Notes: a model not told the origin generated them from the sequence alone. Positions 19,330 through 64,000 are shown, counted from the first letter of the stretch. The stretch: DNA of 64,000 nt from an uncultured bacterium (GCA_964499705.1 CAZCME010000013.1:45217-109216); one strand, 5' to 3'. Made by a program: numbers and translations.

Positions 19330-19414
19330 CTAAGGCTCCTTGGTACTGCGATCGCGGCGAATCGGTCGGTCATCGCCGCGCGGGCTTCTCCAAAGAGACC
19401 AGCCCGTAAGTTAT

Positions 19415-19440
19415 TTATCGACCTTTCCAAACTAAACTAA
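19415..19440 (-). promoter_or_regulatory. Candidate sigma-28 (FliA)-type promoter upstream of flgG
   Basis: Minus-strand sequence TTTAGTTT-N11-GTCGATAA resembles the TAAAGTTT-N11-GCCGATAA class; located ~85 nt upstream of the flgG ATG. Pattern match only. Confidence 0.3.
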
Positions 19441-19462
19441 AGGGAACATTTTCGAACAATTA

Positions 19463-20308
19463 TCAGCCGACCCGGCCGACGTCGTTGACGGCCTGACCGA
19501 GGAGCGTGTCATGGGTCTGGACAACCTTGGCGGAAGTCTCGTAGGCGCGCTGCGATTTGATGAGATCGATCATCTCGCGGACAAGATTGACATTGGATTG
19601 CTCGAGCATGCCGGTCCGGAGCTTGGTGCCGAAGAGAAGCTTCTGGGGAGGACCGGACTCGTCCGTGGCGCGAAAAAGGGTATACCCGACCTTTTCCAGG
19701 CCATGGACATTCTCGAAGGATACCAATCTCAGCGCGTCGGCCGTCACCGGATCCTGCCAGAGGTTGACGCCTTCTCCGGTGTAGGTCGGATTCGTGATGA
19801 TCCGACCGTCCGGTTCGAATCGGATATTGGAGGCGTCGACCTTCACGGGACCGTTTTCCCCGAGGACGAGGGCTCCAGCCTGCGTCGCGAGGTATCCTTC
19901 GGAATTGACGATGAAATTTCCGGCGCGCGTGTACATCTTGCCCTGGGGAGTCAGAACCTCGAAGAAACCATAGGATCGCGCCACGCCGGGGATGCCCTCG
20001 ATCGCCATATCGAAGAGATTCCCGGTGTTGATGGTAGCCGGAGAAACCTCGTGAGTGGTGACGATGTCGTCCACCTGGACGCCCGTTCCCACTCGTCCCA
20101 CCGGCGGAGTGAGATCGAATTCGCGCATCGGAGTCACGAGCTTTTCATCGTGCATCCTGTGGGCGAGCATGGACGGGAAATCGCGGTACACGACCGTATC
20201 CTGCTTGAAACCGACCGTGTTGCCGTTCGCGAGGTTGTTGGCGATGACTTCCATCTCCACGCCCCGCGCGATCATCGCCATCGCACCCGTATAAAGTCCT
20301 CGATCCAT
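19463..20308 (-). CDS. flgF: Flagellar basal-body rod protein (FlgF-like)
   Basis: 281-aa ORF; rod-protein N-terminal motif VIANNLANGNTVGFK and C-terminal MIDLIKSQRAYETSAKVVQTHDTLLGQAV. Confidence 0.85.
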   Translation of the reverse strand: MDRGLYTGAMAMIARGVEMEVIANNLANGNTVGFKQDTVVYRDFPSMLAHRMHDEKLVTPMREFDLTPPVGRVGTGVQVDDIVTTHEVSPATINTGNLFDMAIEGIPGVARSYGFFEVLTPQGKMYTRAGNFIVNSEGYLATQAGALVLGENGPVKVDASNIRFEPDGRIITNPTYTGEGVNLWQDPVTADALRLVSFENVHGLEKVGYTLFRATDESGPPQKLLFGTKLRTGMLEQSNVNLVREMIDLIKSQRAYETSAKVVQTHDTLLGQAVNDVGRVG

Positions 20309-20355
20309 GTTTCTCGAATATCGGGATAGATTTGATATAACATGACAAGAAAATT

Positions 20356-34826: not shown

Positions 34827-35849
34827 CTAAACGACTAACTCCTGCTGCGTCAATGTTGGAATGTTGGAGAATGTCCCCCTGATTGCTTCGGCAAGGGCTC
34901 CTTTGCGCCTGTCTTTTCGCATGCGAGAAACGATCATCGAATAATAACCATTCGGGTGGCGATCGCCGTCCTCATGCTGGATACGGTCGTAGGTCCAGCG
35001 GGCCAGCTCATGCGCAATGTAGATCGTGAGTTCGCGGTGCATCGCCTCGATCGACGACCATGCCTGGCGGCGCATTTCGGATGTGGCCATGACGAACCGG
35101 TCGGCCATCTGCTGAAGATCGCTCCAGGACCACGACACGGCGTCGCGGTCCATCGTGCGTCGCTTTCTGGTTTCTTCGAACCGCTGACGGCGTTCCGTCT
35201 GGAGTTCGATACGCTTTCGAAATAGATGCGAGCTCATGAAACGGCCGTTATGGCCCTCGCGAAACAGTGTTTCGTTGGATTCTGCGTTGAGTTCATTGAA
35301 CCATCTGTCCAATACGCCCAACTGTTTAACATGATCGAAGGAGGAGATGTTCTTTCCGAAGAGTTGCTCGGCGAGCAGATGCCGGTCGACGCGATTTCTC
35401 TGGGTTCCCATGCCCAGCATTTCCCGCGCACTGCACCAAGGATAAAGAAGCGGATCGCGTACGAAACCGGCACGGACTGGATTGAGGATGATGTAGGCGA
35501 CGACGGTTTCAAAGTAGGACTCCGTCTCGATGACGAGCGACTTCGATCTGCCCTGGAAGAGGTGGCCGGTCCGGTCGTGGCGTCGGTTGAGTTCCTGAGA
35601 GGCGCGCGTCAAAAATCGCCGCAGGAATTCCGAAATGTCGCCGCCGGGCGTTCGAAGGCAGAAATGAAAATGATTCGGCATGAGACAATAGGCATACGTG
35701 ACGACGCGAAACATCTTTGCCGACTCGAAATAGAGATCGAGAAATCGACGGTAATCGGACTCGTGCTGGAAGAACGGGTGCTTGTCGACGAAGCGATTGA
35801 GGACGTGGTAGACGGCGTCCTTGTAGGCGATGCGTGGACCTCTGGACAT
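34827..35849 (-). CDS. IS200-like Y1 (HUH) transposase, REP-associated tyrosine transposase (RAYT)-like
   Basis: 340-aa ORF; HUH motif CLMPNHFHFCL and tyrosine motif VAYIILNPVRAGFV align by eye with the PEHMHCIW and YIYINPVK regions of E. coli RayT; N-terminal AVYHVLNR. C-terminal codons read through a repeat copy. Confidence 0.75.
   Translation of the reverse strand: MSRGPRIAYKDAVYHVLNRFVDKHPFFQHESDYRRFLDLYFESAKMFRVVTYAYCLMPNHFHFCLRTPGGDISEFLRRFLTRASQELNRRHDRTGHLFQGRSKSLVIETESYFETVVAYIILNPVRAGFVRDPLLYPWCSAREMLGMGTQRNRVDRHLLAEQLFGKNISSFDHVKQLGVLDRWFNELNAESNETLFREGHNGRFMSSHLFRKRIELQTERRQRFEETRKRRTMDRDAVSWSWSDLQQMADRFVMATSEMRRQAWSSIEAMHRELTIYIAHELARWTYDRIQHEDGDRHPNGYYSMIVSRMRKDRRKGALAEAIRGTFSNIPTLTQQELVV
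34851..34878 (+). repeat. 28-bp REP-like repeat, copy 4
   Basis: Exact CAATGTTGGAATGTTGGAGAATGTCCCC; inverted partner of copy 3 with a 193-bp spacer; lies inside the last ~17 codons of the transposase ORF. Confidence 0.8.
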
Positions 35850-35860
35850 GGCGATGTCTC

Positions 35861-36202
35861 CTATCGGCTTGCGGTGCGGTCGAAATAGTCGCGGACGATG
35901 TTACGGAAGCGTGTGGATCGATGAGGAAGTTCGGCGAGCCATCGCATGTATGTCGGGTCGCGCCGGCTGATCTCCTCGAGCGACCGGCCGCGATGCTTGC
36001 CGAACGCGATTCGATGCGACCTGCCGTGGGGAATCAAACCGGATCGCTTCCGTTCGAAGTTATCGCTGCAGGCGGCTGAATAGACCTCGTCGGCCTTCCG
36101 GAAGGCTTCGTCTTCCGATAGGCCGATACTTCTGAAAATTCCGAATGCACAGGCGCGATCCTGCTCCGGGCTGGTCACTTTCCGCCGATCCTGTTTCGCC
36201 AT
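35861..36202 (-). CDS. Small protein with exodeoxyribonuclease X C-terminal-like (DUF3820-like) motif
   Basis: ORF 35861..36373 trimmed to Met 36202 (MAKQDRRKVTSP...); IAFGKHRGRSLEEISRRDPTYMRWLAEL resembles the FGKYKG...DP.YL.WL motif of that family (recalled, not searched). Confidence 0.45.
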   Translation of the reverse strand: MAKQDRRKVTSPEQDRACAFGIFRSIGLSEDEAFRKADEVYSAACSDNFERKRSGLIPHGRSHRIAFGKHRGRSLEEISRRDPTYMRWLAELPHRSTRFRNIVRDYFDRTASR

Positions 36203-50167: not shown

Positions 50168-50225
50168 TCTCTTCGGTTGCTAACCCCTTGACCATCACGC
50201 GCCGGATGATTACGCTCGCGGCAGG

Positions 50226-51605
50226 ATGAATCATTCGGGCCGATCGCTTCTCCTTCTCTTCCTCCTGATCCTCTTCTCCTCCTGTACCCCCACAAGGCTC
50301 GCTGTCACTTCGACGCCGACCGGCGCCGTGGAAATCGACGGTCGCGAGCGAGGCATGACTCCTGTCACCATCGAAACCGAGTCGGGCCGGACGCACGACA
50401 TCGTCGTTTCGGCGGCGGGATACGAGAACTGGCGTTCCCGCGTCCGCGTCGAGCGGGACCAGGAAGTTCATGCGATCCTGACGCGCACACCTCCGCCCGT
50501 GACCGTCAAGGAAACCGTCGAAGTGCCGACCGCGTCCCGGACAAGGCTCGCGGTCTTCGTCGAACCGGACGGGGGCGAGGTCTGGGTCGATGGAAAGAGT
50601 CGCGGCATGGCCCGGGCCGACCGGCCTGTCGAGGTCGTGTACACGACGAATCCGACGCTGGCCGACGTGGTCGTGACGCGCGAGGGCTTCCGGAAATGGA
50701 CGCGGTCCGTGGATCTCGAATCGGGCCGCGAGAACCGCGTCATCATCCGCATGGAACCGCTCGCGGCCTGGTACACGTTCACCTCCGACGCGGAGATGCT
50801 CCGCAACACCGTCAGCCAGGTCGTATCCTCCACGGCGAACCTGCCATCCCTCGACCGATCTTCGAAAATCGCCGTGCTCTCCATCGCTCACGGCGAAGGC
50901 TCCGACGAGCCGCTGCAATCGCTCCTCGACGACGCCTTCATAACCACGCTCGCCCAGGCGGGATTTTCTCCGGCGGAAAACGACGACCACATGCTGGTGC
51001 AGCTGGCGCATTCCGCTTCCGGAGATTCCATCCCCATCAACGTGATCACGGACAACAAGGGCCCTGACCGGCCGTTCGTTTACGACGCGGAAATCGCGAC
51101 GAAGAGAACCGAGCGCGCGGTGGACGCCCTCCCGGTCACGATCACATCGAGCGTGAGAACGACAACCGAGGATGACGACGTGACGACGGAATCGACGACG
51201 ATCCGGACGGAAACGGTGATGAAGGAGCGGACGCGGCAGATTCCCATCACGGCTTACATTCCCACGGCCGACCAGTTCCTGGCGTATCGCGTCCTGGATT
51301 GCGGGATCTCCAAGACGCCGATCGAGGAGGGAGAAGCGCGCGAGGAGAACATGCTGTATCGCCGCGCCGAATTGCGCGTTCACCTGCGCGTCATCAACGC
51401 CAAGACAGGGATCATCACGTGGGCCGGATTCCTGACCGGGAGAACCGCGGATGAAATTCCCGTGCGCGTCAGCATGGACCTGGCGAATCCGCCGAACCGC
51501 ATGTATGCCGATCCGCTTCCGGACTCGTGGCAGAAATTGCGTCACCCTCCGTCCCGAAGGGTGAACATGGATGTACCGGCCGTCGTCTCCCCCACGCCGC
51601 GCTGA
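50226..51605 (+). CDS. PEGA-domain lipoprotein, paralog 1
   Basis: Signal/lipobox-like N-terminus (LLLLFLLILFSSCTPTRLA) then two PEGA-like beta modules (AVEIDGRERGMTPVT..., EVWVDGKSRGMAR...) and a C-terminal domain sharing blocks with the downstream paralog (KGPDRPFVYDA). Confidence 0.6.
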   Translation: MNHSGRSLLLLFLLILFSSCTPTRLAVTSTPTGAVEIDGRERGMTPVTIETESGRTHDIVVSAAGYENWRSRVRVERDQEVHAILTRTPPPVTVKETVEVPTASRTRLAVFVEPDGGEVWVDGKSRGMARADRPVEVVYTTNPTLADVVVTREGFRKWTRSVDLESGRENRVIIRMEPLAAWYTFTSDAEMLRNTVSQVVSSTANLPSLDRSSKIAVLSIAHGEGSDEPLQSLLDDAFITTLAQAGFSPAENDDHMLVQLAHSASGDSIPINVITDNKGPDRPFVYDAEIATKRTERAVDALPVTITSSVRTTTEDDDVTTESTTIRTETVMKERTRQIPITAYIPTADQFLAYRVLDCGISKTPIEEGEAREENMLYRRAELRVHLRVINAKTGIITWAGFLTGRTADEIPVRVSMDLANPPNRMYADPLPDSWQKLRHPPSRRVNMDVPAVVSPTPR

Positions 51606-51612
51606 ACTTTCT

Positions 51613-53151
51613 TTGAAAGTACTGCATCGCTCTCTTCCGGCACTTCTTCTTCTCGCGGCGTCATGCACTCCCACGCAACTCGCGATCTACTCCCGGCCGG
51701 GCGGAGCGGAGGTTTACATCGACGACAGGCTGTATGCGCGGACGGTGAACGAAGCGACGCCCGTGACGCTGGAAGTGCGGAGCGGAAAATATGGAGTGAG
51801 CATTCTGAAGGACGGGTATCACCCCTGGGCGCGGACCGTGGACGCCAAGCCCTACTCCGTCACTCCCGTCCTGGCCGACCTGGTCCCGATCGAACCCATC
51901 CGGACCTATGTGCCGATCGGGGCCGTCGAGATCCGCATTCATCCGGCGGGAGCGCGCGCCTGGCTAGACGGACAACTCCTGTCACAGCTACCGGAGAACG
52001 CGGGAGAACCCTTCATCATCGAGGGGTTGACGCCGGAGGCGCACGTCCTCCGGGTCGAACGGCAGGGATACGAGTCGGAGGAAACCCGGTTTGAAATCTT
52101 CTCGCAGCTCGTTTCGAACGTCACCCTGAGGCTGGAGCCTTTGAAGCCGTACTATGTCTACCCTTCGAACGACGATCTCCTGAGGAACGCGGCGGTACGC
52201 GCGCTTCGGGGAATCGCTCATCTGCCCGGGATGCGTTCCACGAAGACGATCGGCCTTGTGAGCCTTGACGGGGAAGCGGACGAACTGGACGGGCTCCGGC
52301 CGCTCGTGGAGGACGTGATGATCGCGGAGCTCGCCCGCAACGGCCGGGGCGTGGTCGAAAGGGAGAATCATCTCCTCGTGCGCCTCGCGCAGGAATCGGC
52401 GCGTTCCGATTCCTTCTCGCTCGAAGTGCTCACGAAGCACGGCGGGCCCGACCGGCCGTTCCTGTATGACGCGCGCCTCAAGTCAGCCGCGGACGCGATC
52501 GCGATGCTGGCGACGGACACGGCGGGGCGGGCGCGGCAGATCATCGTCCGCAATCGCGTCGAAGAACCGCTCGCGCATCTGAAGACCGCGGACCAGATCA
52601 TCGGCTATCGCATCGTGGAACGTTCGCTGCGATCCGATCCGATCGACGATCCCGGCTCGCCCGAGCCGATGATCCGGCGCGAAGCGATCATCCGCCTCTT
52701 CATCCGCTTCCTCGACGCGAAAACCGGAATTGTGCAATGGGCGGAACGTTTCGAGGCGTCAGTCGCGGACCGTGTGCCGCAGCGTGTGTACCGCTGGCTC
52801 GAGCATCCGCCCTCGCGCACGTACGCCTACGAGATGAAGCAGAAGCCCGGAAGGGACGCGCGCGAATCCCGGGATACCGCGGCGGCATCGCCCCCGATCG
52901 AATATTTCACCGAGGACGACCTGGGCGGCATCGGCGACCAGGATATCCTCTTCTGGTACTGGCGGAACATGGGCGAAGCCTATCTCCGTGCCGGCCGCTT
53001 CGGCGACGCCGCGCGCCACCTGCGGGAGGCCGTGGCGATCCGGCCGCTGGACTACGAATCAAGGATGCTCTACGCCGAATCGCTCCTGAAGAACGGTCAA
53101 TTGAACGAGGCGGGCCGTGAATACATCCAGGCCATGCGACGCATGGAATGA
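51613..53151 (+). CDS. PEGA-domain lipoprotein, paralog 2, with C-terminal TPR-like tail
   Basis: Track ORF 51571..53151 overlaps paralog 1; in-frame TTG at 51613 gives lipoprotein N-terminus LKVLHRSLPALLLLAASCTPTQLA. Shares CTPT(R/Q)LA, PEGA modules and HGGPDRPFLYDA with paralog 1. Confidence 0.6.
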   Translation: MKVLHRSLPALLLLAASCTPTQLAIYSRPGGAEVYIDDRLYARTVNEATPVTLEVRSGKYGVSILKDGYHPWARTVDAKPYSVTPVLADLVPIEPIRTYVPIGAVEIRIHPAGARAWLDGQLLSQLPENAGEPFIIEGLTPEAHVLRVERQGYESEETRFEIFSQLVSNVTLRLEPLKPYYVYPSNDDLLRNAAVRALRGIAHLPGMRSTKTIGLVSLDGEADELDGLRPLVEDVMIAELARNGRGVVERENHLLVRLAQESARSDSFSLEVLTKHGGPDRPFLYDARLKSAADAIAMLATDTAGRARQIIVRNRVEEPLAHLKTADQIIGYRIVERSLRSDPIDDPGSPEPMIRREAIIRLFIRFLDAKTGIVQWAERFEASVADRVPQRVYRWLEHPPSRTYAYEMKQKPGRDARESRDTAAASPPIEYFTEDDLGGIGDQDILFWYWRNMGEAYLRAGRFGDAARHLREAVAIRPLDYESRMLYAESLLKNGQLNEAGREYIQAMRRME

Positions 53152-53162
53152 AATCCACGCAA

Positions 53163-53194
53163 CCAAATCCCAAATCCCAAATCCCGAATCCCAA
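53163..53194. repeat. Tandem heptanucleotide repeat (CCAAATC, ~4.5 copies, one variant)
   Basis: CCAAATC CCAAATC CCAAATC CCGAATC CCAA in the intergenic region; an inverted complement TTGGGATTTGGATT occurs at 53267..53280 abutting the HD-GYP gene start. Confidence 0.7.
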
Positions 53195-53257
53195 CTTCTC
53201 CATACGGAAGCGGAAACGGGCCGGGCAATCTTCCTGCCTTGATGGTCGGAAACGGAA

Positions 53258-54427
53258 ATGTGTATTTTGGGATTTGGATTAATGTACACAGTCGAAGTGC
53301 GCGACGCGAAGGCGGGCATGACGCTCTCGCGGCCGGTCTTCACCCGGAACGGAAACCTGCTCCTCGATGCCGGCACCCGCCTCTCCGATCATACCCTCGA
53401 CCTGCTCGATCTCTGGGGCATCTTCGACATCCAGGTCGATTCGATCGACTCGCCTTCCGGTCACGCGCCCGCTCCCCGGCAGAAGAAAAAGTTCGATCCT
53501 GTGAAGCGCGAGGCCGAGAAGAAGCGAGTGGAGGATGTGGGCGGCTGGGTGCGCGATGAGATCGAGGGTCTCATGAAGCAGATGAATTCCGGGGGAAGGG
53601 ACATCGACATGGAGCGGCTCAAGGGAGTCGCGGAGTCGATCGTGGAGGAATCCATGAAGGACAACGAGCTGATGGTCTCCCTGACGACGCTCATGGACTT
53701 CGACAGCTATCTCTTCTCGCACGCCGTCCACGTCTCGATTCTCTCCGTCGTGATCGGCATCGCGATGGGCCTCACGCAGAAGGAAATCCAATCGCTGGCC
53801 ATCGGAGGAGCGCTCATCGATCTCGGAATGCTTAAGGTGGACCGGAAAATATGGGATAAGGACGGCGTCCTGTCGGAAGCCGAGTTCAACTTCGTGAAAC
53901 AGCATCCGCTCCTGGGATTGAAGGACGCCGAGCCGCACTGCCGGGGCGATGTGGCTTCTCTCCGGATCATCGCGGAGCATCACGAGCGGCTGGACGGATC
54001 GGGCTATCCCCGGAAGCTGCGGGACAAGGCGATTCATCCTCTGGCGAAGATCGTCGCCGTCTGCGACATCTATGACGCGATGCAGCAGCCCCGCGCCTAC
54101 AGGAAGAAGTGGCTCCCCTACCAGGTCATGGGCCATCTGCTCGTCTCGTCCACGGAGACCCTGGACGCGCAGGTTGTGAAGACTTTTCTCCGCACGATGT
54201 CCGCGTATCCCATCGGATCGTTCGTGAAGATGGATACCGGCCAGGTCGGCGTCGTCGTCTCCTCCAATCCCGCCAGCCCGATCCGACCTGTCGTGAAGCT
54301 CTTCCTGCTGGCTTCGGGAGAGACCATGGAGAAGCCGGAATTCGCGGATCTTTCCGCCGATAAGAGATTCATCATCGGACCGATCGATCCCCGCCAGATC
54401 CACGTCAAACCCTTCGATGTTTTCTAA
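53258..54427 (+). CDS. HD-GYP domain phosphodiesterase (c-di-GMP-type)
   Basis: HD motif (HAVHVS) and EHHERLDGSGYPRKL GYP signature. Alternative start at Met 53282 (MYTVEVRD...) would place the inverted heptamer segment in the 5' leader. Confidence 0.8.
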   Translation: MCILGFGLMYTVEVRDAKAGMTLSRPVFTRNGNLLLDAGTRLSDHTLDLLDLWGIFDIQVDSIDSPSGHAPAPRQKKKFDPVKREAEKKRVEDVGGWVRDEIEGLMKQMNSGGRDIDMERLKGVAESIVEESMKDNELMVSLTTLMDFDSYLFSHAVHVSILSVVIGIAMGLTQKEIQSLAIGGALIDLGMLKVDRKIWDKDGVLSEAEFNFVKQHPLLGLKDAEPHCRGDVASLRIIAEHHERLDGSGYPRKLRDKAIHPLAKIVAVCDIYDAMQQPRAYRKKWLPYQVMGHLLVSSTETLDAQVVKTFLRTMSAYPIGSFVKMDTGQVGVVVSSNPASPIRPVVKLFLLASGETMEKPEFADLSADKRFIIGPIDPRQIHVKPFDVF

Positions 54428-54439
54428 AGCGACGACGGG

Positions 54440-55966
54440 ATGAATTCTCATTCCGGGATCGCGCGGTGCCGGACCGCGGTCCTGTCCGGGATAGACGCTC
54501 TTCCGGTGGATGTGGAAGTGGATATCGGGCGCGGATTGCCGGGCCTCAAGTGCGTCGGGTTGCCGGGCGCCAGCGTGAAGGAATCGGAGGAGCGGGTCAA
54601 ATCGGCGATCCGGAAATCGGGCTTCGACTGGACGAGGAAGCGGATCACGGTCAATCTCGCGCCCGCCGACCTGCGAAAGGAAGGCTCCGGTCTCGACCTC
54701 CCCATCGCCCTCGGAATTCTCGCCGCTTCCGGAGCGCTGCCTCACGAAGCGCTGGAAGGATGGATGGTCCTCGGGGAATTATCGCTGGACGGCCAGCTCC
54801 GCCCGGTCCGCGGCGCCTTGAATTTCGCGATGCTGGCCCGCCGCTCGGGCGTCAGGCGATTGCTGGTTCCGCAGGAAAATGTCGCGGAAGCCTCGCTCTG
54901 CCATGACGTGGATGTCCACTCCGCGCGGAATCTTGCTGAAGCGGCTGCGCTGTTGCCGGCCCCCGGTGCTGTTCCACCTCGTGCGCCCGCGTCGGCGATT
55001 CCGGAAAGCGACCTGGACTTCGCGGATGTCCGCGGACTTTCGACACCGCGCCGGGCCGCGCTTGTCGCCGCGGCGGGCGGCCACAATATTCTCATGATCG
55101 GGCCGCCCGGTTCCGGGAAGACGATGATCGCGCGACGCTTTCCGACGATCCTGCCGGCGCTGGAATTCGACGACGCCCTGGAGATGCTCCGGATCCATTC
55201 CGCGGTCGGCCTGACCCTGAACGGCACGCTCCCGTCGATTCCTCCATTCCGCGCCCCCCACCATACGACCTCCGCGGTCGGCATGATCGGCGGCGGCCAT
55301 CCGATGCGGCCCGGCGAAGTGTCGCTGGCGCACCGTGGCATTCTCTTCCTGGACGAGCTGCCGGAATTCCGCCGCGATCTCCTGGAGTCGCTGCGTCAGC
55401 CGATCGAGGACGGGCACGTCACGGTGACGCGTGCGTCGGGATCGGCGAATTTCCCCGCGAAGTTCATGCTCGTCGCCGCCATGAATCCCTGCCCCTGCGG
55501 CCAGCTCGGCTCGGACATCCCGTGCGAATGCGCGCCGTCGCAAGTCGGCAAGTACATGCGCCGCATCTCCGGTCCGCTCCTGGACCGCATCGATATCCAC
55601 CTGGAGGTTCCGCGCCGGCCGTACCGCGAGACATCCGCGAACGCGCCCGGCGAAACATCCGCTTCGCTGCGGCAGCGGGTGACCGAGGCGAGAACGCGCC
55701 AGAATCTGAGATATGCGAAGGCTCGATATCGCACCAACGCGCAGGTTTCCGCGAAGGCGTTTCGGCAGTCCTTCGAAGCGGAGGAGGCCGCGCACGAACT
55801 GCTGCGGGAATCGGTCGACGGGCTCGGATTGTCCGCGCGCGCCGCGGAGAAGGTGGAGCGCCTGGCGCGGACCGTCGCGGACCTGGCGGGGCGGGACCTG
55901 GTCACGGAAGACGATGTCGCCGAAGCGGTCGGCTACAGGACGCTCGACAGGCGTTGCCGCGCATGA
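54440..55966 (+). CDS. comM: YifB/ComM-family Mg-chelatase-like AAA+ ATPase
   Basis: N-terminal Lon-protease-like domain, Walker A MIGPPGSGKTMIA, Walker B ILFLDELPEF, and Cys cluster NPCPCGQLGSDIPCEC typical of the family. Confidence 0.85.
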   Translation: MNSHSGIARCRTAVLSGIDALPVDVEVDIGRGLPGLKCVGLPGASVKESEERVKSAIRKSGFDWTRKRITVNLAPADLRKEGSGLDLPIALGILAASGALPHEALEGWMVLGELSLDGQLRPVRGALNFAMLARRSGVRRLLVPQENVAEASLCHDVDVHSARNLAEAAALLPAPGAVPPRAPASAIPESDLDFADVRGLSTPRRAALVAAAGGHNILMIGPPGSGKTMIARRFPTILPALEFDDALEMLRIHSAVGLTLNGTLPSIPPFRAPHHTTSAVGMIGGGHPMRPGEVSLAHRGILFLDELPEFRRDLLESLRQPIEDGHVTVTRASGSANFPAKFMLVAAMNPCPCGQLGSDIPCECAPSQVGKYMRRISGPLLDRIDIHLEVPRRPYRETSANAPGETSASLRQRVTEARTRQNLRYAKARYRTNAQVSAKAFRQSFEAEEAAHELLRESVDGLGLSARAAEKVERLARTVADLAGRDLVTEDDVAEAVGYRTLDRRCRA

Positions 55967-57933
55967 AGAAGGAGGATATTCGAAACCAGCTGCGAGGATT
56001 GCAGGCTCTGCAGGGGCTCGCGCCGTCGTTCCTCGACGAGATCGCGGAACTGGGGGTGGAAAGAACATACGCGCGCGATTCGATCGTCATATCCGAAGGG
56101 CAGGTCGTGGAACATTTCTTCGTGATACTCGGAGGACGGCTGCTGGCTCACTATGGCGACAAGGTTGTTTCGCACATGGAGCGAGGCGACACGTTCGGCC
56201 AGCTGAGCCTGATGGCGGAAGTGCCGTCGCTCGTCACCGTGAAGGTGCGGCACGACGCGCGGCTCCTGCACGTTCCGCGCAATCTCTTCCGGAAAGCGCT
56301 GGCATCGAGCCCGGAGTTCGCGGCGCAGATCTTCAAGGGTTCCGCCGCGCGCCTCGCGACGATCAACCAGGAGACGAGGACGCGCCAGCCCGTCATCGTC
56401 GCCGTGCATTCGGCGCCCGCGGGAGTCGGCAAGACGAAGTTCGCCATCAACCTGGCGTGCGCCATGGCCGCGGAAAATGCCGGCCGCGTGCTTCTTGTCG
56501 ATGTCGCCACGGAGAAAAAGCGCTTCATCGACATCTTCGGTTTCGGAGGATCTCTGCCTCTTGTCGATCTGCGGGACATCGAGACATCGAGCCGGGACGC
56601 GGTGCGGGAAAAAACGCGAAAGCACGATGCCGGGTTCGAGATACTCCGCCTGGCCCATCGCGGGAGCTCCGCGAGCGCGGACCAGACGCGCGAGGACGAG
56701 GCGGTCGCGCCGCTGCTTTCATCGCTGTCCCGGACATTCCATTACATCGTGACCGATCTGCCTCCGGTCATGGACGCGACCGTCTGGAAATTCCTGACGC
56801 ACGCCGATACCGCGATCATCCTGACGTCGGCCGAGCCGGTCCATCTCGCGCAAACAGCCAATCTCCTCGGAAAGCTGCCCGGCAAGGCCAGGGTCCTTGT
56901 GACGCGGGCCACGACCGAGCTCGAAGCCAAACGAGAAACGATCGACACCGCGCTCGGACAGCGCGTGGACGAATTCCTCGAGGAGCTCCCGGAAGGCGAT
57001 GAAATCGCTTTCATCTCCCGCCCGGGATCCCGCTACGCCTCGGCGGTACGCCGCCTCGCTCGCGGCATCCTCGGCCGGCTCGTGGGCCTGGCGCTCTCCG
57101 GAGGCGCCGCGAGAGGGATGGCTCACATCGGCGTCCTGAAGGTGCTGGAAGAGGAAGGCATCCGGCCCGATATCATCGCCGGAACTTCGATGGGGGCCCT
57201 GATCGGCGGGATGTGGGCGTCCGGGAGCAACGCGGCCGTATTGGAAAGGATCGCGCGGAGGATCCGACGGAGCGAGTTCTTCAGCATCTTCGACCTGGCC
57301 CTGCCGCCTTCGTCAGGGCTCCTTCGCGGCACCAAGGTCGATCACTTCATCCGCGGCGTCTTCGGCCAGAAGCGCTTCTGCGACCTTCTGATTCCGCTCC
57401 GGGTCATCGCCACCGACATCGACACGGGAGATCACGTCGTCTTCGATCACGGTTCCGTGGCCGACGCCGTCCGGTCTTCCGTGGCCATCCCCGGAATCCT
57501 GAAGCCGAACATCGTCGACGGCAGGCGCCTGACGGACGGCGCCGTCATCGCTCCCGTTCCCGTCGATACGCTGCGGGAGGCGGGCGTGTCCCGGATCATC
57601 GCCGTCAACGCGATTCCCACCGCCGAATGCTTCCGCGATTACAGCCGTTCGGCGATCCAGCCCGCGGCGGGACGGAGCGATTTTCTCGCGCGCCTCTTCC
57701 ATTTCAGCACCCGCGACGTGCCAAGCCTTCTCGATATCATCGTCCGCTCGAACCAGTTCATGGAGGCGGCGATCGCGGAACATTCCTGCCAGGGCGCCTC
57801 GGTCATCATCCGCCCGTGGCTCCCGGAACTGCACTGGATGGATTTCGACTCCGCGCCGCGCTTCATCGAGTCCGGCGTCAAGGCCGCCAGGGAGGCGATG
57901 CCGGAGATCAGGGAGATGATGAATGGGGGATAA
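55963..57933 (+). CDS. Three-domain fusion: cNMP-binding domain / ParA-MinD-like P-loop domain / patatin-like phospholipase
   Basis: ATG 55963 overlaps the comM stop (ATGA); the upstream part of track ORF 55522..57933 is out of frame. cNMP-binding (ISEGQVVEHFFVILGGRL...GDTFGQLSLM); P-loop AVHSAPAGVGKTKFAINLA with Walker B IVTDLPP; patatin motifs SGGAARG, GTSMG, TDGAV. Confidence 0.75.
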   Translation: MKKEDIRNQLRGLQALQGLAPSFLDEIAELGVERTYARDSIVISEGQVVEHFFVILGGRLLAHYGDKVVSHMERGDTFGQLSLMAEVPSLVTVKVRHDARLLHVPRNLFRKALASSPEFAAQIFKGSAARLATINQETRTRQPVIVAVHSAPAGVGKTKFAINLACAMAAENAGRVLLVDVATEKKRFIDIFGFGGSLPLVDLRDIETSSRDAVREKTRKHDAGFEILRLAHRGSSASADQTREDEAVAPLLSSLSRTFHYIVTDLPPVMDATVWKFLTHADTAIILTSAEPVHLAQTANLLGKLPGKARVLVTRATTELEAKRETIDTALGQRVDEFLEELPEGDEIAFISRPGSRYASAVRRLARGILGRLVGLALSGGAARGMAHIGVLKVLEEEGIRPDIIAGTSMGALIGGMWASGSNAAVLERIARRIRRSEFFSIFDLALPPSSGLLRGTKVDHFIRGVFGQKRFCDLLIPLRVIATDIDTGDHVVFDHGSVADAVRSSVAIPGILKPNIVDGRRLTDGAVIAPVPVDTLREAGVSRIIAVNAIPTAECFRDYSRSAIQPAAGRSDFLARLFHFSTRDVPSLLDIIVRSNQFMEAAIAEHSCQGASVIIRPWLPELHWMDFDSAPRFIESGVKAAREAMPEIREMMNGG

Positions 57934-58018: not shown

Positions 58019-59506
58019 ATGATCTCCAACTGGAGCCGATTCACGGCGTGGCCGGCGCGCGAAATGAAGCGCCTCCAGGACCGGCTCCTCGTGGATTTCC
58101 TTCGCGAAGACCTCGTCCCGTTTTCCTCCTACTACGCGAAGCTTTTCGACGAGCAGGATATCGACGTGGATGAGATCAACGCGGTGTCCGACCTCGCGGG
58201 TCTTCCCTTCACGACGAAGTCGGATCTCATCGCGGCATTGGACGAAGATCCGCTCGCCTTCGTCCTCCGGCCGACCGCGGACCTGATCCGGGCTCACTGG
58301 CCCCTTGCGAGAAAGTTACCGCTCCTGGCGCGGAAGCTCTTCAAGGGCGAAGCCGATGTGAAGCGCGTCCTGGAGAAGGAATACCTGCCGATCTTCATGA
58401 CGGCAACGACGGGACGCGCGGCGAAACCCGTGTCGTTTCTTTACACGCGAGCGGACATGTATCGACTTCGCACGGCGGGGCGTCGCACCGCTGATGTCAT
58501 TGGCCTGACATCCGCGGATCGCTGCATCAACCTCTTCCCTTATGCTCCGCATCTCGCCTTCTGGCAGGTCGCCTTCGCGGGTTTCGAATCGGGCATCTTC
58601 ATGCTCTCCACGGGCGGCGGGAAGACCATCGGCACGGCGGGAAATATCCGCGCGATGGAAAAAGTGAAGCCCACGTGCCTCCTCGGCGTCCCGAGCTACG
58701 TGTATCACATCCTCCGATGCGCGGAGAAGGAAGGATTGAAGCTGTCGTCGATCAACACGATCGTGCTGGGCGCCGAAAAGGTGCCGCCCGGCCTGAAGGA
58801 ACGTCTCTCCGACCTGGTCGTTCGCCTGGGAGGAAAGCCGCCGCGCGTCGTGGGGACATATGGATTCACCGAAGCCAAGATGGCGTGGTCGGAATGCGAT
58901 GGCGGCACCCAGGGCAGGGAAAGTTCCGGTTACCATCTCTATCCCGACATGGAAATCATCGAGATCGTCGAACCGGAAACAGGCCGCGTCGTCGGCGAAG
59001 GCGAAAGCGGCGAGATCGTCTACACGTCGCTCGATGGGCGCGGCACGGCCGTGCTGCGGTATCGAACGGGAGACTACTGCGAGGGCGGAATCACGTATGG
59101 CCCGTGTCCTCATTGCGGCAAGACCCTTCCCCGTCTCTCCTCGAACATCACGCGTCTTTCGAACGTGAAGGATGTCAGCCTCACCAAGGTCAAGGGCACG
59201 CTCGTCGATCTGAATCACATCGCCTCGCTCCTGTCGGACGCAAGCGAGATCGAGGAGTGGCAGCTTGAGATATCGAAACTGAATGACGATCCGTCCGAGG
59301 TGGACGTCATGACGCTCTCCTTCACGCCCGTCGCGGGAGCGCGGATCGAGCCGAAGGAAATCTCCCGCAGGATCTTTGACGCCACGGAAGTGGCCTTGAA
59401 CAAGGTCGAAGTCCTGGCGCTTCCGGAGATGGTCGCGAAGCTGGGGCTCGAAACCGAATTGAAGGAGAAACGAATCATCGACCGCAGAGCGGAAGCGAAG
59501 AAGTAG
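58019..59506 (+). CDS. Phenylacetate-CoA ligase-like adenylate-forming enzyme (PaaK / F390 synthetase family)
   Basis: 495-aa ORF; N-terminal LAGLPFTTKSDL motif, TTGRAAKPV (AMP-binding P-loop-like), and C-terminal domain typical of PaaK-like ligases. Confidence 0.7.
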   Translation: MISNWSRFTAWPAREMKRLQDRLLVDFLREDLVPFSSYYAKLFDEQDIDVDEINAVSDLAGLPFTTKSDLIAALDEDPLAFVLRPTADLIRAHWPLARKLPLLARKLFKGEADVKRVLEKEYLPIFMTATTGRAAKPVSFLYTRADMYRLRTAGRRTADVIGLTSADRCINLFPYAPHLAFWQVAFAGFESGIFMLSTGGGKTIGTAGNIRAMEKVKPTCLLGVPSYVYHILRCAEKEGLKLSSINTIVLGAEKVPPGLKERLSDLVVRLGGKPPRVVGTYGFTEAKMAWSECDGGTQGRESSGYHLYPDMEIIEIVEPETGRVVGEGESGEIVYTSLDGRGTAVLRYRTGDYCEGGITYGPCPHCGKTLPRLSSNITRLSNVKDVSLTKVKGTLVDLNHIASLLSDASEIEEWQLEISKLNDDPSEVDVMTLSFTPVAGARIEPKEISRRIFDATEVALNKVEVLALPEMVAKLGLETELKEKRIIDRRAEAKK

Positions 59507-59523: not shown

Positions 59524-60057
59524 TCAAATTCCGCCCTCTTCGACCCGATCGAGCTTCTGAACGGTTCCATCCGGAGCCGAAATCTCGAAAGGAAACCAGA
59601 GATCGCGCGAGTCGTCGTCCATGCGACACGAGAGCTCCTCGATTCCGCCCCCGACATCCGTGACGCGAATTTTCACATCGGCATCGAGATCCTTCGACGG
59701 ACCGGGAGCCCAGTATCGGACGGCGACGCGCCAGGAACCTGTTTCGCGGGCCGGAACGAAGCGGAGTTCCTCGTCGCCGGAGAGTCCGGAGACACGCTCG
59801 GTCGCGGCGGTTTTTTTCGCGAGCACGCGCACGTTGGAATCGCCGGATGATGCGGCCATCTGCCAGAGCTCGACATCGAGGTCGGCATCATTATCCCAGG
59901 AGAGCCGGATCAGTACTCCCTGCTGTTGCGGCTCGCCACAACCCAGGATGGTCGCCGCGACAAAAAGCGCGGTAGCCAGAACCTTGACGAAGCCGGCGTG
60001 CCCGCGTACGATTTCAGAGGAAATGAATTTGTCCGGCCGCATCATCCCGGCCATCAT
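59524..60057 (-). CDS. Hypothetical lipoprotein
   Basis: 177-aa ORF; lipobox-like LFVAATILGCGEP; rest hydrophilic, no motif. Confidence 0.5.
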   Translation of the reverse strand: MMAGMMRPDKFISSEIVRGHAGFVKVLATALFVAATILGCGEPQQQGVLIRLSWDNDADLDVELWQMAASSGDSNVRVLAKKTAATERVSGLSGDEELRFVPARETGSWRVAVRYWAPGPSKDLDADVKIRVTDVGGGIEELSCRMDDDSRDLWFPFEISAPDGTVQKLDRVEEGGI

Positions 60058-60266: not shown

Positions 60267-60791
60267 ATGACGACCACCCCCATCAACAATCTCGCTGCCG
60301 TCCCCTTCCTGGCGCTCCTGGACGACAACGAATGCCGGGCTCTGGGAGCGCGCCTGCAATCCAAATCCTATCAAGCCGGCGAGGAAATATTCGCGCAGGG
60401 GCAGCCGGGGGATTCGTTCTACATCGTGAAAAGCGGTCGCGTGAAGATCTTCATCGAGAGCGGGGACGGAGAAGAGATCGTCTTGACGGAGAGCAAGGCG
60501 GGCGACGCGTTCGGCGAAATCTCGCTCTTCGACGGAGGTCCGCGCACCGCCACCGCCGTCGCCGCATCGCAGGCCGAATTGCTCTGGCTCGATCGAGGAC
60601 GCCTCCTCGATTTTCTCTCCGACTTCCCGCATGCCGCGCTCGACCTCATGGCGTTCATGGGTCGCAGGCTTCGCGAGACGGACGAATTGCTCCGCGTCAT
60701 CATCGCCCGCAAGCCCGAGAGCAAGGCGGCCGAAGAAAACTCCACCTTCGATCAGATCTCCAGGAGCATCAGGAAGTTCCTGTCGGCCTGA
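60267..60791 (+). CDS. Stand-alone cyclic-nucleotide-binding domain protein (Crp-like effector domain, no obvious HTH)
   Basis: ORF 60132..60791 trimmed to Met 60267 (MTTTPINNLAAVPFLALL...); motifs GDSFYIVKSGRVKIF and AGDAFGEISLFDGGPRTATAVA; C-terminus too short for a Crp-type DNA-binding domain. Confidence 0.7.
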   Translation: MTTTPINNLAAVPFLALLDDNECRALGARLQSKSYQAGEEIFAQGQPGDSFYIVKSGRVKIFIESGDGEEIVLTESKAGDAFGEISLFDGGPRTATAVAASQAELLWLDRGRLLDFLSDFPHAALDLMAFMGRRLRETDELLRVIIARKPESKAAEENSTFDQISRSIRKFLSA

Positions 60792-60838
60792 TGCGCGCCA
60801 TGGACGAAGCCGCGGCCGTGCGATAACCTCCGTCGCGG

Positions 60839-63800
60839 ATGGCCTCCAAGGGAACCAAGGGTAAGGAAGCGAAAAAGAGCTCCGCCGCGTCCAAGCGCCT
60901 GCGTGCTCTTCTGTGGGGTTTCCTCATCGGCATCCTCGTCTGCGCTTTCACGCTGGCCGTCGGTACGACGAATTTCGCGAAGAAGACGGAGCTGATCACG
61001 CTCGATCTCCGCTATCGCCAGAGGCCTCCCGTACGTTTTCATCCCGATGTCGGATATATCGACTTCGACGACTCTTCCATCGCGCTCTTCGGCCGCTGGG
61101 TCTGGCCGCGACACCGGATGGTGGCGCTCGTTCGAACGCTCGATCGATACGACGCGCGCGCGGCCGGATACGACGTCTTCTTCACGGAAAAAAACGACGT
61201 TGTCCTGGCCACGGACCGGCTCGCGAGAGAATCCTCCGACACGGGCACCGCGCCTCCTCCCGTGGAGAAGGTCACGGCGGCCTTCCGGGACTACGACATG
61301 GAATTCGAGGAGGCGATCCGCGACGCGGGCAACATGTATCTGGGCCAGTTCATGCCTCAGCCCGACGCGGAAATGGCCGCGGGAAGCCCGACGGAGAGAC
61401 GGGCCAAGATCCAGAACTACATCGACTCCCAGTTCATGCCCACGCGCACGCCGGATCAACTGGCGGCGCTCGTGGTGGCCGAGCAATTCGCCGTCGACGC
61501 CGATTCCGCGATGGACGAGCATCTCTACAAGGCCATCGGCATCACGACGGTGCTGCCCGAACTCTCTCTCGCCGCGGCGGGCGTGGGCTACGCCCAGATC
61601 ATCGAGGATCTCGATCCCGCCGTCCGACTGTATCCCCTCTTCATGTATTTCAACCGAAAGGCCTACCCTTCCATCGCCGTCGTCATGCTCTGCCGGCTCC
61701 TCGATGTGCCGGTGCAGAACATCCGCATCGTGCCGGGCGAGTTCATCGAGTTCCCGAACGCGCTGACCGAGCCTCCGGACCAGTCGGTGCTCGCCGATCC
61801 GGAACACCCCGTCCGGAAGGAAGCGCCCCGCGGGACGATTCGCATCCCCGTGGATCAGCATGGCCAGATGCTCGTCAACTGGGCGGGCTCCTTCATGGAA
61901 CGGGGCCTCCATATATCTTTTCGCAGCATATCAGCCTTCCATGCGCTCGCGCGCTCCAAGGAGATCGCCGGGCGCTACGCCCCCGTGCCCGACTCCTATG
62001 CGCCACTCCGTGACGAAATCTGGACGGCCATCAGCGAGGACAAGCTGGTGACGGACGAGGAAGGCAGGAGACTAGCCGAGGAGATCGCTCTGGCTCACGT
62101 CGTGGAGCCGATGCTGGACGCGGGCGTTTCGCCGGTGGACGCATGGACGACGGTGACATCGGGCCCGGAGCCCATCTGCCCGCCCGAGCCGAACTTGAAG
62201 GACGTCATCACCGCGCTCGACGTCGCTCATCGCGCCCGGGACGGGCAGGACACGACCAGCCCCCTCGGCGAAACCTGGAATCGGGAGATCAGCCGCAACA
62301 TCGCCTTCTTCGCGAAACGCGATCGCCTCCAGGAAGTATCGCCTCTTTATTTTCCACGGCCCTCCTCCGCCATGTGGGACGGAGAGATGAAGGAATTCTC
62401 GCCGGTCGACCTGGAAAACAAGATGCTCATGATCGGACTGACCGGGATCGGCACGATCGATCTGAACCCGATGCCATTCGAGCGCGCCTGTCCGATGGTG
62501 GCGCTGCACACCAACGCCCTGAACACGATTCTCACGAAGCAGTTCCTCCAGTTCCCCGAAAAATCCGACCGTTACATCGCCGTGCTCATCCTGGGGCTGG
62601 GCGCGTCCCTTCTCTGCGCTTTCCTCTCGCCCTCGCAGGCCTTCCTGCTCTGCCTCGCCATGGGAGGCGGCTACACATGGCAGGTCTGGTCCTACTGGCG
62701 CAACGACGGCCGCTGGGTCCCGCTCGTGGAGCCGCTCCTTGCGCTTTCGCTCACCTACGTCATCCACGTCGTCATCGAATTCATCCGCGCGCTCCGCGCC
62801 AAGCAGCAGATCCGCGGCCTCTTCTCGACGATGGTCTCCCCGAACGTCCTGAAGCTCATGGAGCAGAATCCGGACAAGTTCTCCCTGACCGGCGAACGAA
62901 AGCCCGGCACGATGTTCTTCTCCGGGATCGAGGGATTCGGCAAGGTGACGCAGGGTGTCGCTCCGGAGGATCTCTCCGCGATCCTCGGCATGTATCTCAC
63001 GCCGACGAGCGAGATCATCATGGATTACGACGGTTACATCGACAAGTACGAGGGCCATATCATCATGGCCGATTTCGGAGTTCCGCTGGACGATCCGGGC
63101 CACCCGTGGAAGTGCTGCTACTCCGCGATCGAGCAGCAGCAGGATATCGAGGCCTTCCGCGTCTTCGTCGCGGCGCGCTACGGCGAGGACGTCACGGTCG
63201 CCATGGGAATCAACAGCGGTTACGTCTCCGCGGGGAACATGGGCTCGGAGAAAAAAATGCAGTACACTGTGATGGGCGACGCCGTGAACGTGTCGGCCCG
63301 GTTCCGTCCCGCGAACATCATCTACAACACGGGAGTCATCACCGGCGAAGCCACGGAACCGCTCATTCGCGACACGGTCGAGCTCCGCATGCTCGACAAG
63401 CTCCTCCTGAAAGGCAAGACCAAGCCCACGACCATCTATGAAGTGATGGGGTGGAAGGAAGAGAGCTATCTGAAGACGAAGGCGGGAAAACCCGTGCCGC
63501 CGTCGCTCTTTGTCCGCTGGCGAACCTGCCCGCCGGAGAAGGTCTTCGGATATATCCTCTTCTGGCGCAGGCGTGAAAAGGACCACGGAGTCGCTCTCTG
63601 CGGCGAGATCGCGGCGTTCTTCGAATCGGTGGTCCCGATCGCGGAAGAGATCATGATCCACTCCGCGACGCTCTCCATCAGCTCCCTGGATGCCGCCATC
63701 AACCGCGTCGAGGACGCCGTCAGGAGCATCGCTCCGGAATCCTGGTCCACGCCGGATGTTCCGCCGCGACAGGAAGGCGATCCGACATGGATGCAGAAGC

Positions 63801-64000
63801 TCCATCACTGGGCCATCCGCGTGGAGGCGATGGACAAGGTGCTGCACGACGCGCATCACCGCGGAGCCACCTCGCCGGACGGCGTGCCCGCGGTCGTGGA
63901 GCTTTTGATGCAGACCGTCTCTCTCGCCGGCAAGATCCAGCGGCTCCGCGAAAACCTGCCCAGGCAGTCCCGGCTCGGCATCGCCTCCATCAACCGCGCG
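60839..64000 (+). CDS. CHASE2 sensor domain-containing class III adenylate/guanylate cyclase, partial (3' end beyond window)
   Basis: Frame open from ATG 60839 to the window end (no such ORF in the track, consistent with no stop in the window). My translation: MASKGTKGK..., CHASE2-like ITLDLRYRQRPP...YIDFDDSSIALFGRWVWPRHRMVALVRTLDRYDARAAGYDVFF, TM helices, then cyclase domain MFFSGIEGFGKV...MADFGVPLDDPGH...YTVMGDAVNVSARF. Confidence 0.75.
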   Translation, partial: MASKGTKGKEAKKSSAASKRLRALLWGFLIGILVCAFTLAVGTTNFAKKTELITLDLRYRQRPPVRFHPDVGYIDFDDSSIALFGRWVWPRHRMVALVRTLDRYDARAAGYDVFFTEKNDVVLATDRLARESSDTGTAPPPVEKVTAAFRDYDMEFEEAIRDAGNMYLGQFMPQPDAEMAAGSPTERRAKIQNYIDSQFMPTRTPDQLAALVVAEQFAVDADSAMDEHLYKAIGITTVLPELSLAAAGVGYAQIIEDLDPAVRLYPLFMYFNRKAYPSIAVVMLCRLLDVPVQNIRIVPGEFIEFPNALTEPPDQSVLADPEHPVRKEAPRGTIRIPVDQHGQMLVNWAGSFMERGLHISFRSISAFHALARSKEIAGRYAPVPDSYAPLRDEIWTAISEDKLVTDEEGRRLAEEIALAHVVEPMLDAGVSPVDAWTTVTSGPEPICPPEPNLKDVITALDVAHRARDGQDTTSPLGETWNREISRNIAFFAKRDRLQEVSPLYFPRPSSAMWDGEMKEFSPVDLENKMLMIGLTGIGTIDLNPMPFERACPMVALHTNALNTILTKQFLQFPEKSDRYIAVLILGLGASLLCAFLSPSQAFLLCLAMGGGYTWQVWSYWRNDGRWVPLVEPLLALSLTYVIHVVIEFIRALRAKQQIRGLFSTMVSPNVLKLMEQNPDKFSLTGERKPGTMFFSGIEGFGKVTQGVAPEDLSAILGMYLTPTSEIIMDYDGYIDKYEGHIIMADFGVPLDDPGHPWKCCYSAIEQQQDIEAFRVFVAARYGEDVTVAMGINSGYVSAGNMGSEKKMQYTVMGDAVNVSARFRPANIIYNTGVITGEATEPLIRDTVELRMLDKLLLKGKTKPTTIYEVMGWKEESYLKTKAGKPVPPSLFVRWRTCPPEKVFGYILFWRRREKDHGVALCGEIAAFFESVVPIAEEIMIHSATLSISSLDAAINRVEDAVRSIAPESWSTPDVPPRQEGDPTWMQKLHHWAIRVEAMDKVLHDAHHRGATSPDGVPAVVELLMQTVSLAGKIQRLRENLPRQSRLGIASINRA

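Follow-up and report, generated by a model that had tools for sequence, protein, structure and literature searches.

A CNB-fold, MinD-like P-loop and patatin fusion protein of an uncultured bacterium and its relation to the neuropathy target esterase family

A stretch of 64,000 nucleotides (nt) of DNA from an uncultured bacterium (GCA_964499705.1 CAZCME010000013.1:45217-109216; the whole stretch is referred to here as the window) carries an open reading frame (ORF) at 55963..57933 on the plus strand that encodes a protein of 656 amino acids (aa). Pfam matches and an AlphaFold (AF2) model divide this protein, here called the fusion protein, into a cyclic-nucleotide-binding (CNB) fold domain, a MinD-like P-loop domain and a patatin domain. 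An identical protein from a metagenome-assembled genome is held at NCBI under the name 'patatin-like phospholipase family protein [Candidatus Hydrogenedentota bacterium]'. The ATG of the gene overlaps the TGA of the preceding comM gene as ATGA, and the translational coupling to comM noted in a first-pass annotation of the window is consistent with these 4 nt common to both genes. The start codon is supported by an alignment in which the homologues begin at the equivalent methionine. A scan for promoters and terminators gave nothing exceeding shuffled expectation, and the protein contains neither a transmembrane segment nor a signal peptide (highest 19-residue Kyte-Doolittle mean 1.27). The full-length model, built on 42 homologues, has a pLDDT of 88.3 and a pTM of 0.87. 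When the whole model was used in a Foldseek search, the solved structures each covered at most one domain, with the patatin part matching PlpD, the middle part MinD, ParA and FlhG, and the N-terminus PKA-R and PKG. Among the NCBIfam models RssA, MinD and a BY-kinase-type model match the protein, each below its equivalog cut-off. The three domains that had been proposed from the sequence are thus real, as seen from the Pfam matches to cNMP_binding, AAA_31 and Patatin and from the fold matches, and the motifs listed for them are all present (SAPAGVGKT, an hhhhD Walker B, SGGAARG, GTSMG, and DGA).

The patatin domain is of the RssA/PlpD type according to Pfam, NCBIfam and Foldseek and extends over aa 374-656; with the stop codon it occupies 57082..57933 (+). 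Pfam Patatin (PF01734) covers aa 376-537 (E 5e-34, 118.6 bits against a cut-off of 27.7), and the NCBIfam model RssA covers aa 374-652 (E 4e-38) with 131 bits, which is under the equivalog cut-off of 272. The best structural match is PlpD (5fya; E 1.7e-20, target-normalised TM-score 0.86, 33% identity), and further Foldseek matches include patatin of the 1oxw/4pk9 type, CapV and CapE. Motif searches and the family alignment place the oxyanion-hole loop SGGAARG at aa 379-385 (57097..57117, +), the nucleophile elbow GTSMG with Ser409 at aa 407-411 (57181..57195, +) and the catalytic Asp motif D525-G-A at 57535..57543 (+), in agreement with the patatin patterns G-G-x-x-[RK]-G, G-x-S-x-G and D-G-[AG]. 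The expectation that the catalytic residues are conserved was confirmed: S409, D525, G526, G381 and G385 are identical in 42/42 homologues, while positions 380 and 384 of the oxyanion loop vary. With its Ser409-Asp525 dyad intact, the protein is predicted to be a lipid acyl-hydrolase. The patatin domain has its Ser-Asp dyad and oxyanion loop in common with RssA/YchK and PlpD. However, PlpD is the secreted passenger of a type Vd autotransporter with POTRA and beta-barrel domains, in place of which the fusion protein has cytoplasmic regulatory domains.

The N-terminal CNB-fold domain comprises aa 1-135 (55963..56367, +), including a C-terminal helix at aa 117-134. Pfam cNMP_binding (PF00027) matches aa 34-115 (E 6e-12, 45.8 bits against a cut-off of 27.5), sequence searches of the PDB return PKG and PKA-R, and Foldseek gives target-normalised TM-scores of 0.75-0.86 to the CNB domains of these two proteins. 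The phosphate-binding cassette of this domain is degenerate. It reads FGQLSLMAEVPSLVT (aa 78-92; 56194..56238, +), and when it is aligned to FGEAALIHNTQRSAT of PfPKG, Gln80 stands in the place of the Glu and Ser89 in the place of the Arg. A search of the fusion protein for the canonical pattern G-E-x-A-L-x5-R-[ST]-A was therefore negative, both the Glu and the Arg being replaced. In cyclic nucleoside monophosphate (cNMP) binding domains the cassette Arg holds the cyclic phosphate. As the CNB pocket lacks the residues that do so, neither cAMP nor cGMP is likely to be the signal, and the cyclic-nucleotide gating proposed in the first-pass annotation appears doubtful for this protein.

The middle domain (aa 144-372; 56392..57078, +) has a MinD/ParA fold resembling that of CpaE/TadZ. 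Pfam AAA_31 matches aa 145-300 (E 1.6e-9, exceeding the gathering score), there are weaker matches to CbiA, ParA and BcsQ, and NCBIfam returns MinD (E 6e-10) and the BY-kinase-type model (E 9e-9), both sub-cut-off. A model of aa 136-372 alone (pLDDT 87.7, pTM 0.88) predicts a true MinD/ParA fold, and Foldseek agrees, so that this part is a genuine ATPase fold and not a linker. The closest solved ATPase structures are 3ea0, a ParA-family protein of Chlorobium, and the MinD structures 4v02 and 3q9l; together with its relatives of the REC + AAA_31 type, the match to 3ea0 places the domain nearest to the CpaE/TadZ group. The best single-sequence match in the PDB is VpsO (E 7e-6). The Walker A motif SAPAGVGKT (aa 150-158; 56410..56436, +), found by motif search and in the family alignment, conforms to [AG]xxxxGK[ST] through A151-PAGV-G156-K157-T158. 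G156, K157 and T158 are kept, and the position of the MinD signature Lys (Lys11) is occupied by Pro152, as in all proteins of the clade to which the fusion protein belongs (clade A, see below); the signature Lys of KGGxGK[ST] was looked for and is absent. In switch I, aligned to 3q9l (D180-V-A182; 56500..56508, +), Asp180 is retained at the position of MinD Asp38 and Ala182 is found at that of Asp40, so the search for a catalytic Asp equivalent to MinD Asp40 or Soj Asp44 was negative; residue 40 of the 3q9l chain is itself Ala in the alignment. The Walker B strand YIVTDLPP with Asp265 (aa 261-268; 56743..56766, +) comes from the family alignment. Its IVTDLPP part is aa 262-268, and IVTD265 provides the hhhhD motif. 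The downstream 'AD' motif is retained at Asp282.

The domain thus shares the Walker A GK[ST], the Walker B hhhhD and the 'AD' strand motif with MinD, FlhG, FleN and ParA and with CpaE/TadZ. It differs from MinD/ParA proteins, which have the deviant Walker A Lys (KGGxGK[ST]) and the catalytic Asp40, in carrying Pro and Ala at these positions and in being covalently joined to a lipase; a separate C-terminal membrane-targeting helix, as in MinD-type proteins, was not identified in the fusion protein. BY-kinases (VpsO, BceF, Wzc, CapB) likewise lack the signature Lys. In CpaE/TadZ an N-terminal REC-like domain precedes an atypical MinD-like ATPase within a tad/flp pilus locus, whereas the fusion protein has a CNB domain instead, and there are no tad genes among its neighbours in the window. 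Mutants of this Asp, MinD D40A and Soj D44A, still bind ATP and are deficient in hydrolysis. By analogy, ATP or a related nucleotide is the probable ligand of the P-loop domain of the fusion protein, and with Pro for the signature Lys and Ala in place of MinD Asp40, hydrolysis would probably be poor or absent.

Searches for relatives of the fusion protein found about 45 full-length homologues (585-730 aa), 42 of which make up the family alignment. They come from uncultured lineages with the source names Hydrogenedentota, Lindowbacteria, Omnitrophota, Desulfobacteraceae, KSB3 and Elusimicrobia, and the taxonomic distribution rests on these few names; a scan of GTDB genomes with the clade-A alignment gave at least three loci, two of them clade A, and the wider middle-domain alignment offered no stretch conserved enough to serve as a query for such a scan. 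With the middle-domain profile as query, exhaustive searching by HMMER gave 61 cluster representatives at E<=1e-30, mostly of 640-710 aa, and the family thus counts about 61 clusters at 50% identity. The next tier of matches consists of proteins of about 400 aa with a REC and a MinD-like domain and a canonical KGGxGK[ST], in the layout of CpaE/TadZ, and of CNB + MinD-like and REC + CNB + MinD-like proteins. Because these three types form the next tier, a sensor domain joined to a MinD-like ATPase is a recurrent module. By sequence, the nearest non-fused relatives are the REC + AAA_31 and CNB + AAA_31 proteins. One CNB protein of this kind (P0251) has a canonical MinD-like ATPase (SPKGGTGKT) followed by a C-terminal membrane region, and another protein (P0238) is a REC + CNB + MinD-like fusion.

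The 42 aligned members fall into three clades and one protein that belongs to none of them. Clade A, defined by at least 44% identity to the fusion protein, has 13 members, which all keep Walker A and Walker B and have lost the cassette Arg; this residue is Ser, Ala or Cys in 13/13, and Gln, Gly, Lys or Asp stands in for the Glu. The 13 members of clade B have mostly lost Walker A, with His at the position of the cassette Arg. In clade C (15 members) both Walker motifs are lost in 14/15, the exception being P0029, which keeps both, and the cassette is canonical in 15/15, reading FGEMALL..PRNAT. The unassigned protein, P0060, has lost both Walker motifs and the cassette Arg. Walker A and B thus occur together in 13/13 members of clade A and in 1/29 of the others, and clade A, which contains Hydrogenedentota and relatives, is the sole examined clade that keeps both. 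DLPP is invariant and SAPAGVGKT nearly so in clade A, whose proteins are about 51% identical overall. Pairwise identity of the middle domain is 53% in clade A, 22% in clade B and 33% in clade C, that of the nine P-loop residues 93%, 16% and 30%, and that of the CNB domain 40%, 41% and 45%, respectively. In clade-A proteins the cassette is among the less constrained parts and the P-loop is nearly invariant, which suggests that the P-loop is under selection in this clade alone. Across the clades the decay of the P-loop and that of the CNB cassette are reciprocal, with a Fisher p = 0.007 that overstates the case because the pattern rests on about three lineages.

The order of the domains is that of the neuropathy target esterase (NTE) family, a resemblance that the first-pass annotation had seen correctly. 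Pfam places a 'Neuropathy Target Esterase family P-loop like domain' (PF24179, here NTE_Ploop) between the CNB domains and the patatin domain of P0049, a weaker match of our searches. A search with P0049 gave at least 1,467 bacterial relatives at E<=1e-20; PF24179 and patatin are present in 120/120 of the relatives listed, CNB in all but two, and many bear the name 'NTE family protein / lysophospholipid hydrolase' given by the Joint Genome Institute (JGI). The layout of CNB, P-loop-like and patatin domains is consequently common and already catalogued, and the 'unusual fusion', with its ParA-like module inserted relative to NTE, does not stand as described; what is distinctive are the intact Walker motifs of clade A, on which no paper was found. 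Literature searches for CNB with ParA/MinD and patatin, for Rv2565 and for PNPLA6 with P-loop returned no description of such an architecture, and no paper on the origin or function of the NTE 'P-loop like' domain was found in the literature searched. With hhalign, a profile of 20 middle-domain sequences coincided precisely with the NTE_Ploop region (Prob 72%, E 3e-5), and a profile of 42 sequences matched it over 139 columns (Prob 95.5%, E 1.3e-8; reversed-sequence control 0.1%). Single-clade profiles aligned in register at 45-89%. Against the single sequences P0049, P0058 and P0107 the middle-domain profile gave nothing or weak hints, and profiles on both sides are needed for this comparison. 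At the P-loop position the NTE_Ploop sequences read 'VVPxxxDVPL'.

These profile matches indicate that the middle domain is homologous to NTE_Ploop and suggest that the fusion family is a small sister family of NTE with a less degenerate counterpart of NTE_Ploop. Since PF24179 occupies the same position and the profiles point to homology, the ParA-like module is no peculiar insertion. The module order is shared with PNPLA6/NTE, Drosophila SWS, yeast Nte1 and the bacterial group, the eukaryotic proteins presumably containing PF24179, as we take from the name of the Pfam family. Both families also share a conserved helix ('..RR.AR..') leading into a GLALSGG.ARG patatin start. They differ in that NTE proteins have two or three CNB domains and the fusion protein one, in that NTE_Ploop is degenerate at the P-loop whereas clade A keeps GKT and DLPP, and in that eukaryotic NTE has an N-terminal transmembrane anchor, which the fusion protein lacks.

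In the window the gene order is PheS/PheT, PEGA, PEGA/TPR, HD_5 (HD-GYP-like), ComM, the fusion protein and a PaaK/FlxY-like acyl-CoA ligase, followed by a small ORF on the minus strand, a stand-alone CNB protein and a class III cyclase. The comM/yifB-type gene (54440..55966, +) encodes a Mg-chelatase-like AAA+ protein (Pfam ChlI, Mg_chelatase and Mg_chelatase_C), and its adjacency to the fusion gene is kept in the loci L001, L002, L007, L008 and L010. The HD_5 gene (53258..54427, +), assigned by Pfam and synteny, is a conserved upstream neighbour in clade A. The AMP-binding ligase (58019..59506, +) starts 85 nt downstream of the fusion gene, no terminator-like site was found between 57933 and 58019, and the ligase is orthologous to those of L001, L002, L007 and L008 (56-69% identity). 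Including the window, a ligase lies downstream in 5/6 clade-A loci. In L001, L002, L007 and L008 the order PEGA/TPR, HD_5, ComM, fusion and ligase continues into thiolase and FadB-like genes, to which some loci add an acyl-CoA dehydrogenase (ACAD), and in L008 overlapping stop and start codons link the fusion, ligase, thiolase and FadB genes. In all the clade-A loci seen, L001, L007, L008 and L010 among them, the fusion gene is preceded by the block of PEGA, PEGA/TPR, HD_5 and ComM (50184-55966 in the window), with PheST farther upstream in the window and in L007.

Clade-B loci have upstream genes unrelated to those of clade A and share the theme of lipid catabolism. L004 reads Era, fusion, thiolase, 3HCDH, ECH and ligase; L012 reads glycerol kinase, glycerol-3-phosphate dehydrogenase, fusion, thiolase, 3HCDH, ECH, ACAD and electron transfer flavoprotein (ETF); and L016 reads glycerol kinase, fusion, long-chain ligase and Hydrolase_4. 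In L015 a CNB-MaoC fusion, a protein of 582 aa with a CNB and a MaoC dehydratase domain (2136-3884), and ACOX fragments are located upstream of the family member. The neighbourhoods of L006 and L014 show no lipid-catabolism link, and the L013 sequence ends at the fusion gene. Taken together, the gene context points to lipid catabolism and not to defence. According to a published description (PMC10866078), Hydrogenedentota degrade lipid, glycerol and fatty acids.

From these observations we favour, at about an even chance of being right, an explanation in which the fusion protein is a cytoplasmic, regulated lipid acyl-hydrolase of NTE architecture that is controlled by a P-loop nucleotide switch and feeds beta-oxidation. 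The CNB-fold and MinD/CpaE-like P-loop domains would form the regulatory half and the RssA/PlpD-type patatin domain the catalytic half. Small-molecule input in clade A would probably arrive via the MinD-like domain and not via the CNB pocket. The predicted combination of nucleotide binding with poor or no hydrolysis suggests that the P-loop domain would license the lipase as a switch, changing its conformation or oligomeric state with the nucleotide. Fatty acids would be released from (lyso)phospholipids or acylglycerols, as the gene context suggests, activated by the acyl-CoA ligase encoded directly downstream, and then pass into beta-oxidation.

Several points weigh against this explanation. 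The functional proposals for the whole family are drawn from sequence, models and gene context. Neither the fusion protein (E<=1) nor any of the 42 members (E<=10) matches PF24179 in hmmscan, 22/42 matching AAA_31 instead, and the homology to NTE_Ploop comes from profile-profile scores alone. The ATP-sandwich dimer of MinD/ParA proteins normally needs the signature Lys, and a canonical switch of this kind is doubtful in a domain that lacks it. With regard to gene context, L010 has the upstream genes without the ligase, the clade-C loci and L005 have no lipid-catabolism neighbours, and among the ORFs scanned in the window there is no thiolase, FadB or ACAD, so that only the ligase follows the fusion gene. 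Because clade-A synteny reaches PheST and ComM, part of it may reflect lineage inheritance and not functional coupling. Finally, the canonical CNB protein and the class III cyclase are encoded 2.3-3 kb downstream of the fusion gene, which makes a cNMP link in this genome possible.

An explanation that is compatible with a catabolic role, the two not being mutually exclusive, and that we regard as possible but rather unlikely, sees the protein as an enzyme of membrane-lipid homeostasis of the NTE, Nte1 or RssA kind, that is, a lysophospholipase or phosphatidylcholine deacylase remodelling or detoxifying the lipids of the cell itself. The homology to the NTE family, with its bacterial members named lysophospholipid hydrolases by JGI, is consistent with this, as are the patatin domain, which is most like RssA in NCBIfam, the housekeeping genes PheST and ComM in the clade-A synteny, and the loci that lack catabolic neighbours. 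However, the links to beta-oxidation, glycerol kinase and ETF recur amid otherwise unrelated flanks, and the stop/start overlaps of L008 tie the fusion gene to the ligase, thiolase and FadB genes.

Direct gating by cyclic nucleotides, with cAMP or cGMP bound to the CNB domain activating the patatin domain and the ParA-like module serving as a second switch or for localisation, is unlikely in our estimate. The CNB fold is real, relatives in clade C retain the canonical cassette, and a canonical CNB protein and a cyclase are encoded just downstream in the window. Moreover, CNB-site mutations in Drosophila SWS/PNPLA6 alter phospholipase function, and Arg-less CNB domains occur there too, in two of the three CNBs of SWS (PMC12710771). 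The absence of the cassette Arg in all of clade A, together with the replaced Glu, argues against such gating, as does the weak constraint on the clade-A cassette compared to the P-loop, and the cyclase and CNB neighbours are not kept in other clade-A loci.

The clade-A middle domain could also be a structural pseudo-NTPase scaffold, a spacer or dimerisation platform that binds no nucleotide and keeps its P-loop for structural reasons, which we judge to be quite unlikely. The losses of the signature Lys and of the Asp40 equivalent would fit such a scaffold. Walker A is gone in 28/29 members outside clade A and in the NTE_Ploop family, and since the domain nevertheless persists there, nucleotide binding would not be needed for its basic role. 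The near-identity of the clade-A P-loop and the invariant DLPP, at the overall identity given above, are hard to explain without a ligand.

The least probable explanation, an anti-phage or abortive-infection effector like CBASS CapV/CapE or Pycsar, in which a second messenger triggers membrane destruction, was rejected on PADLOC and NCBIfam scores and gene context as extremely improbable: PADLOC matches are weak and at domain level (the CNB part of PycTIR, E 7e-8; phospholipase effectors, E 3e-7), NCBIfam CBASS_lipase reaches 25.2 bits against a cut-off of 200, the nearest patatin structure is PlpD and not CapV, in spite of CapV and CapE being among the Foldseek matches, no CD-NTase or Pycsar cyclase is adjacent, where ComM, the HD_5 protein and the ligase are found, and chromosomal synteny with housekeeping and catabolic genes is kept across genomes at 44-77% identity. 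The analogy with cyclic-nucleotide-activated patatin effectors drawn in the first-pass annotation is accordingly limited to the domain level. CapV and CapE are patatin hydrolases under the control of a nucleotide-type ligand, and activation by oligomerisation is plausibly a shared logic; unlike the fusion protein they bind the ligand on the patatin protein itself, without a CNB or P-loop domain.

Returning to the favoured explanation of a nucleotide-switched lipase, its bolder extension is that the MinD-like domain of clade A is a working nucleotide sensor that couples lipolysis to the energy or beta-oxidation state and, at the same time, the ancestral functional form of the PNPLA6 P-loop-like domain. 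We put this forward tentatively and consider it rather improbable. ATP/ADP might be the ligand, or conceivably a metabolite that contains ADP, for instance CoA or acyl-CoA. If this were true, a nucleotide switch of the MinD/CpaE type would survive as a fossil in the NTE regulatory region, and the soluble bacterial proteins would offer a tractable model for it. NTE/PNPLA6 is a disease-linked lipase, and its regulation by the large N-terminal region is poorly understood. A bacterial sister family with a recognisable MinD/CpaE-type NTPase suggests a source for the NTE domain, and soluble proteins with a single CNB domain may provide a system for sensor-to-lipase coupling. The genes for acyl-CoA ligase, beta-oxidation, glycerol kinase and ETF that recur beside the fusion gene suggest that the protein is a regulated lipase inside the cell, placed where lipid catabolism begins, in lineages (Hydrogenedentota and others) that are thought to live on the lipids of dead biomass. 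Should these proposals fail, a plain NTE-like patatin protein with a generic annotation would be left. As the layout itself is known, the features worth noting are the clade of NTE P-loop-like domains with intact Walker A and B motifs, the reciprocal decay of the two putative sensor sites and the recurrent linkage to lipid catabolism.

A number of other features were observed in the window and in the related loci. The stand-alone CNB protein (60267-60791) has 174 aa and a canonical cassette, FGEISLFDGGPRTATA. Directly after its gene an ORF encoding a CHASE2 domain and a class III adenylate/guanylate cyclase begins, which spans 60827-64000 and runs off the end of the window. The two look like a local cNMP signalling pair, and this pair beside the fusion gene is not conserved in the other clade-A loci examined (L001, L002, L007, L008). 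Between the ligase and the CNB gene, the ORF at 59524-60057 (-) encodes 177 aa with a lipobox-like N-terminus (…TILGCGEP…) and without a Pfam or NCBIfam match, and it sits where related genomes have the thiolase gene. In the clade-B loci L012 (2227-3782) and L016 (4326-5405), YajQ and PilZ genes precede the fusion gene at a distance of two to three genes, which, together with the HD-GYP-like gene of clade A, hints at a possible connection to c-di-GMP. Farther away in the window, an ORF of 357 aa at 34827-35900 (-) carries an IS200-like Y1 transposase domain towards the N-terminus. On the same strand, the regions 8164-13948 (-) and 15578-20353 (-) comprise a 960-aa multihaem cytochrome c with FixO/cbb3-like modules beside a Rieske protein, and a flagellar basal-body cluster (FlgI, FlgA, FlgG/F) downstream. 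At 837-2198 an ATP-cone domain is fused to a domain of the phosphoribulokinase/uridine-kinase family.

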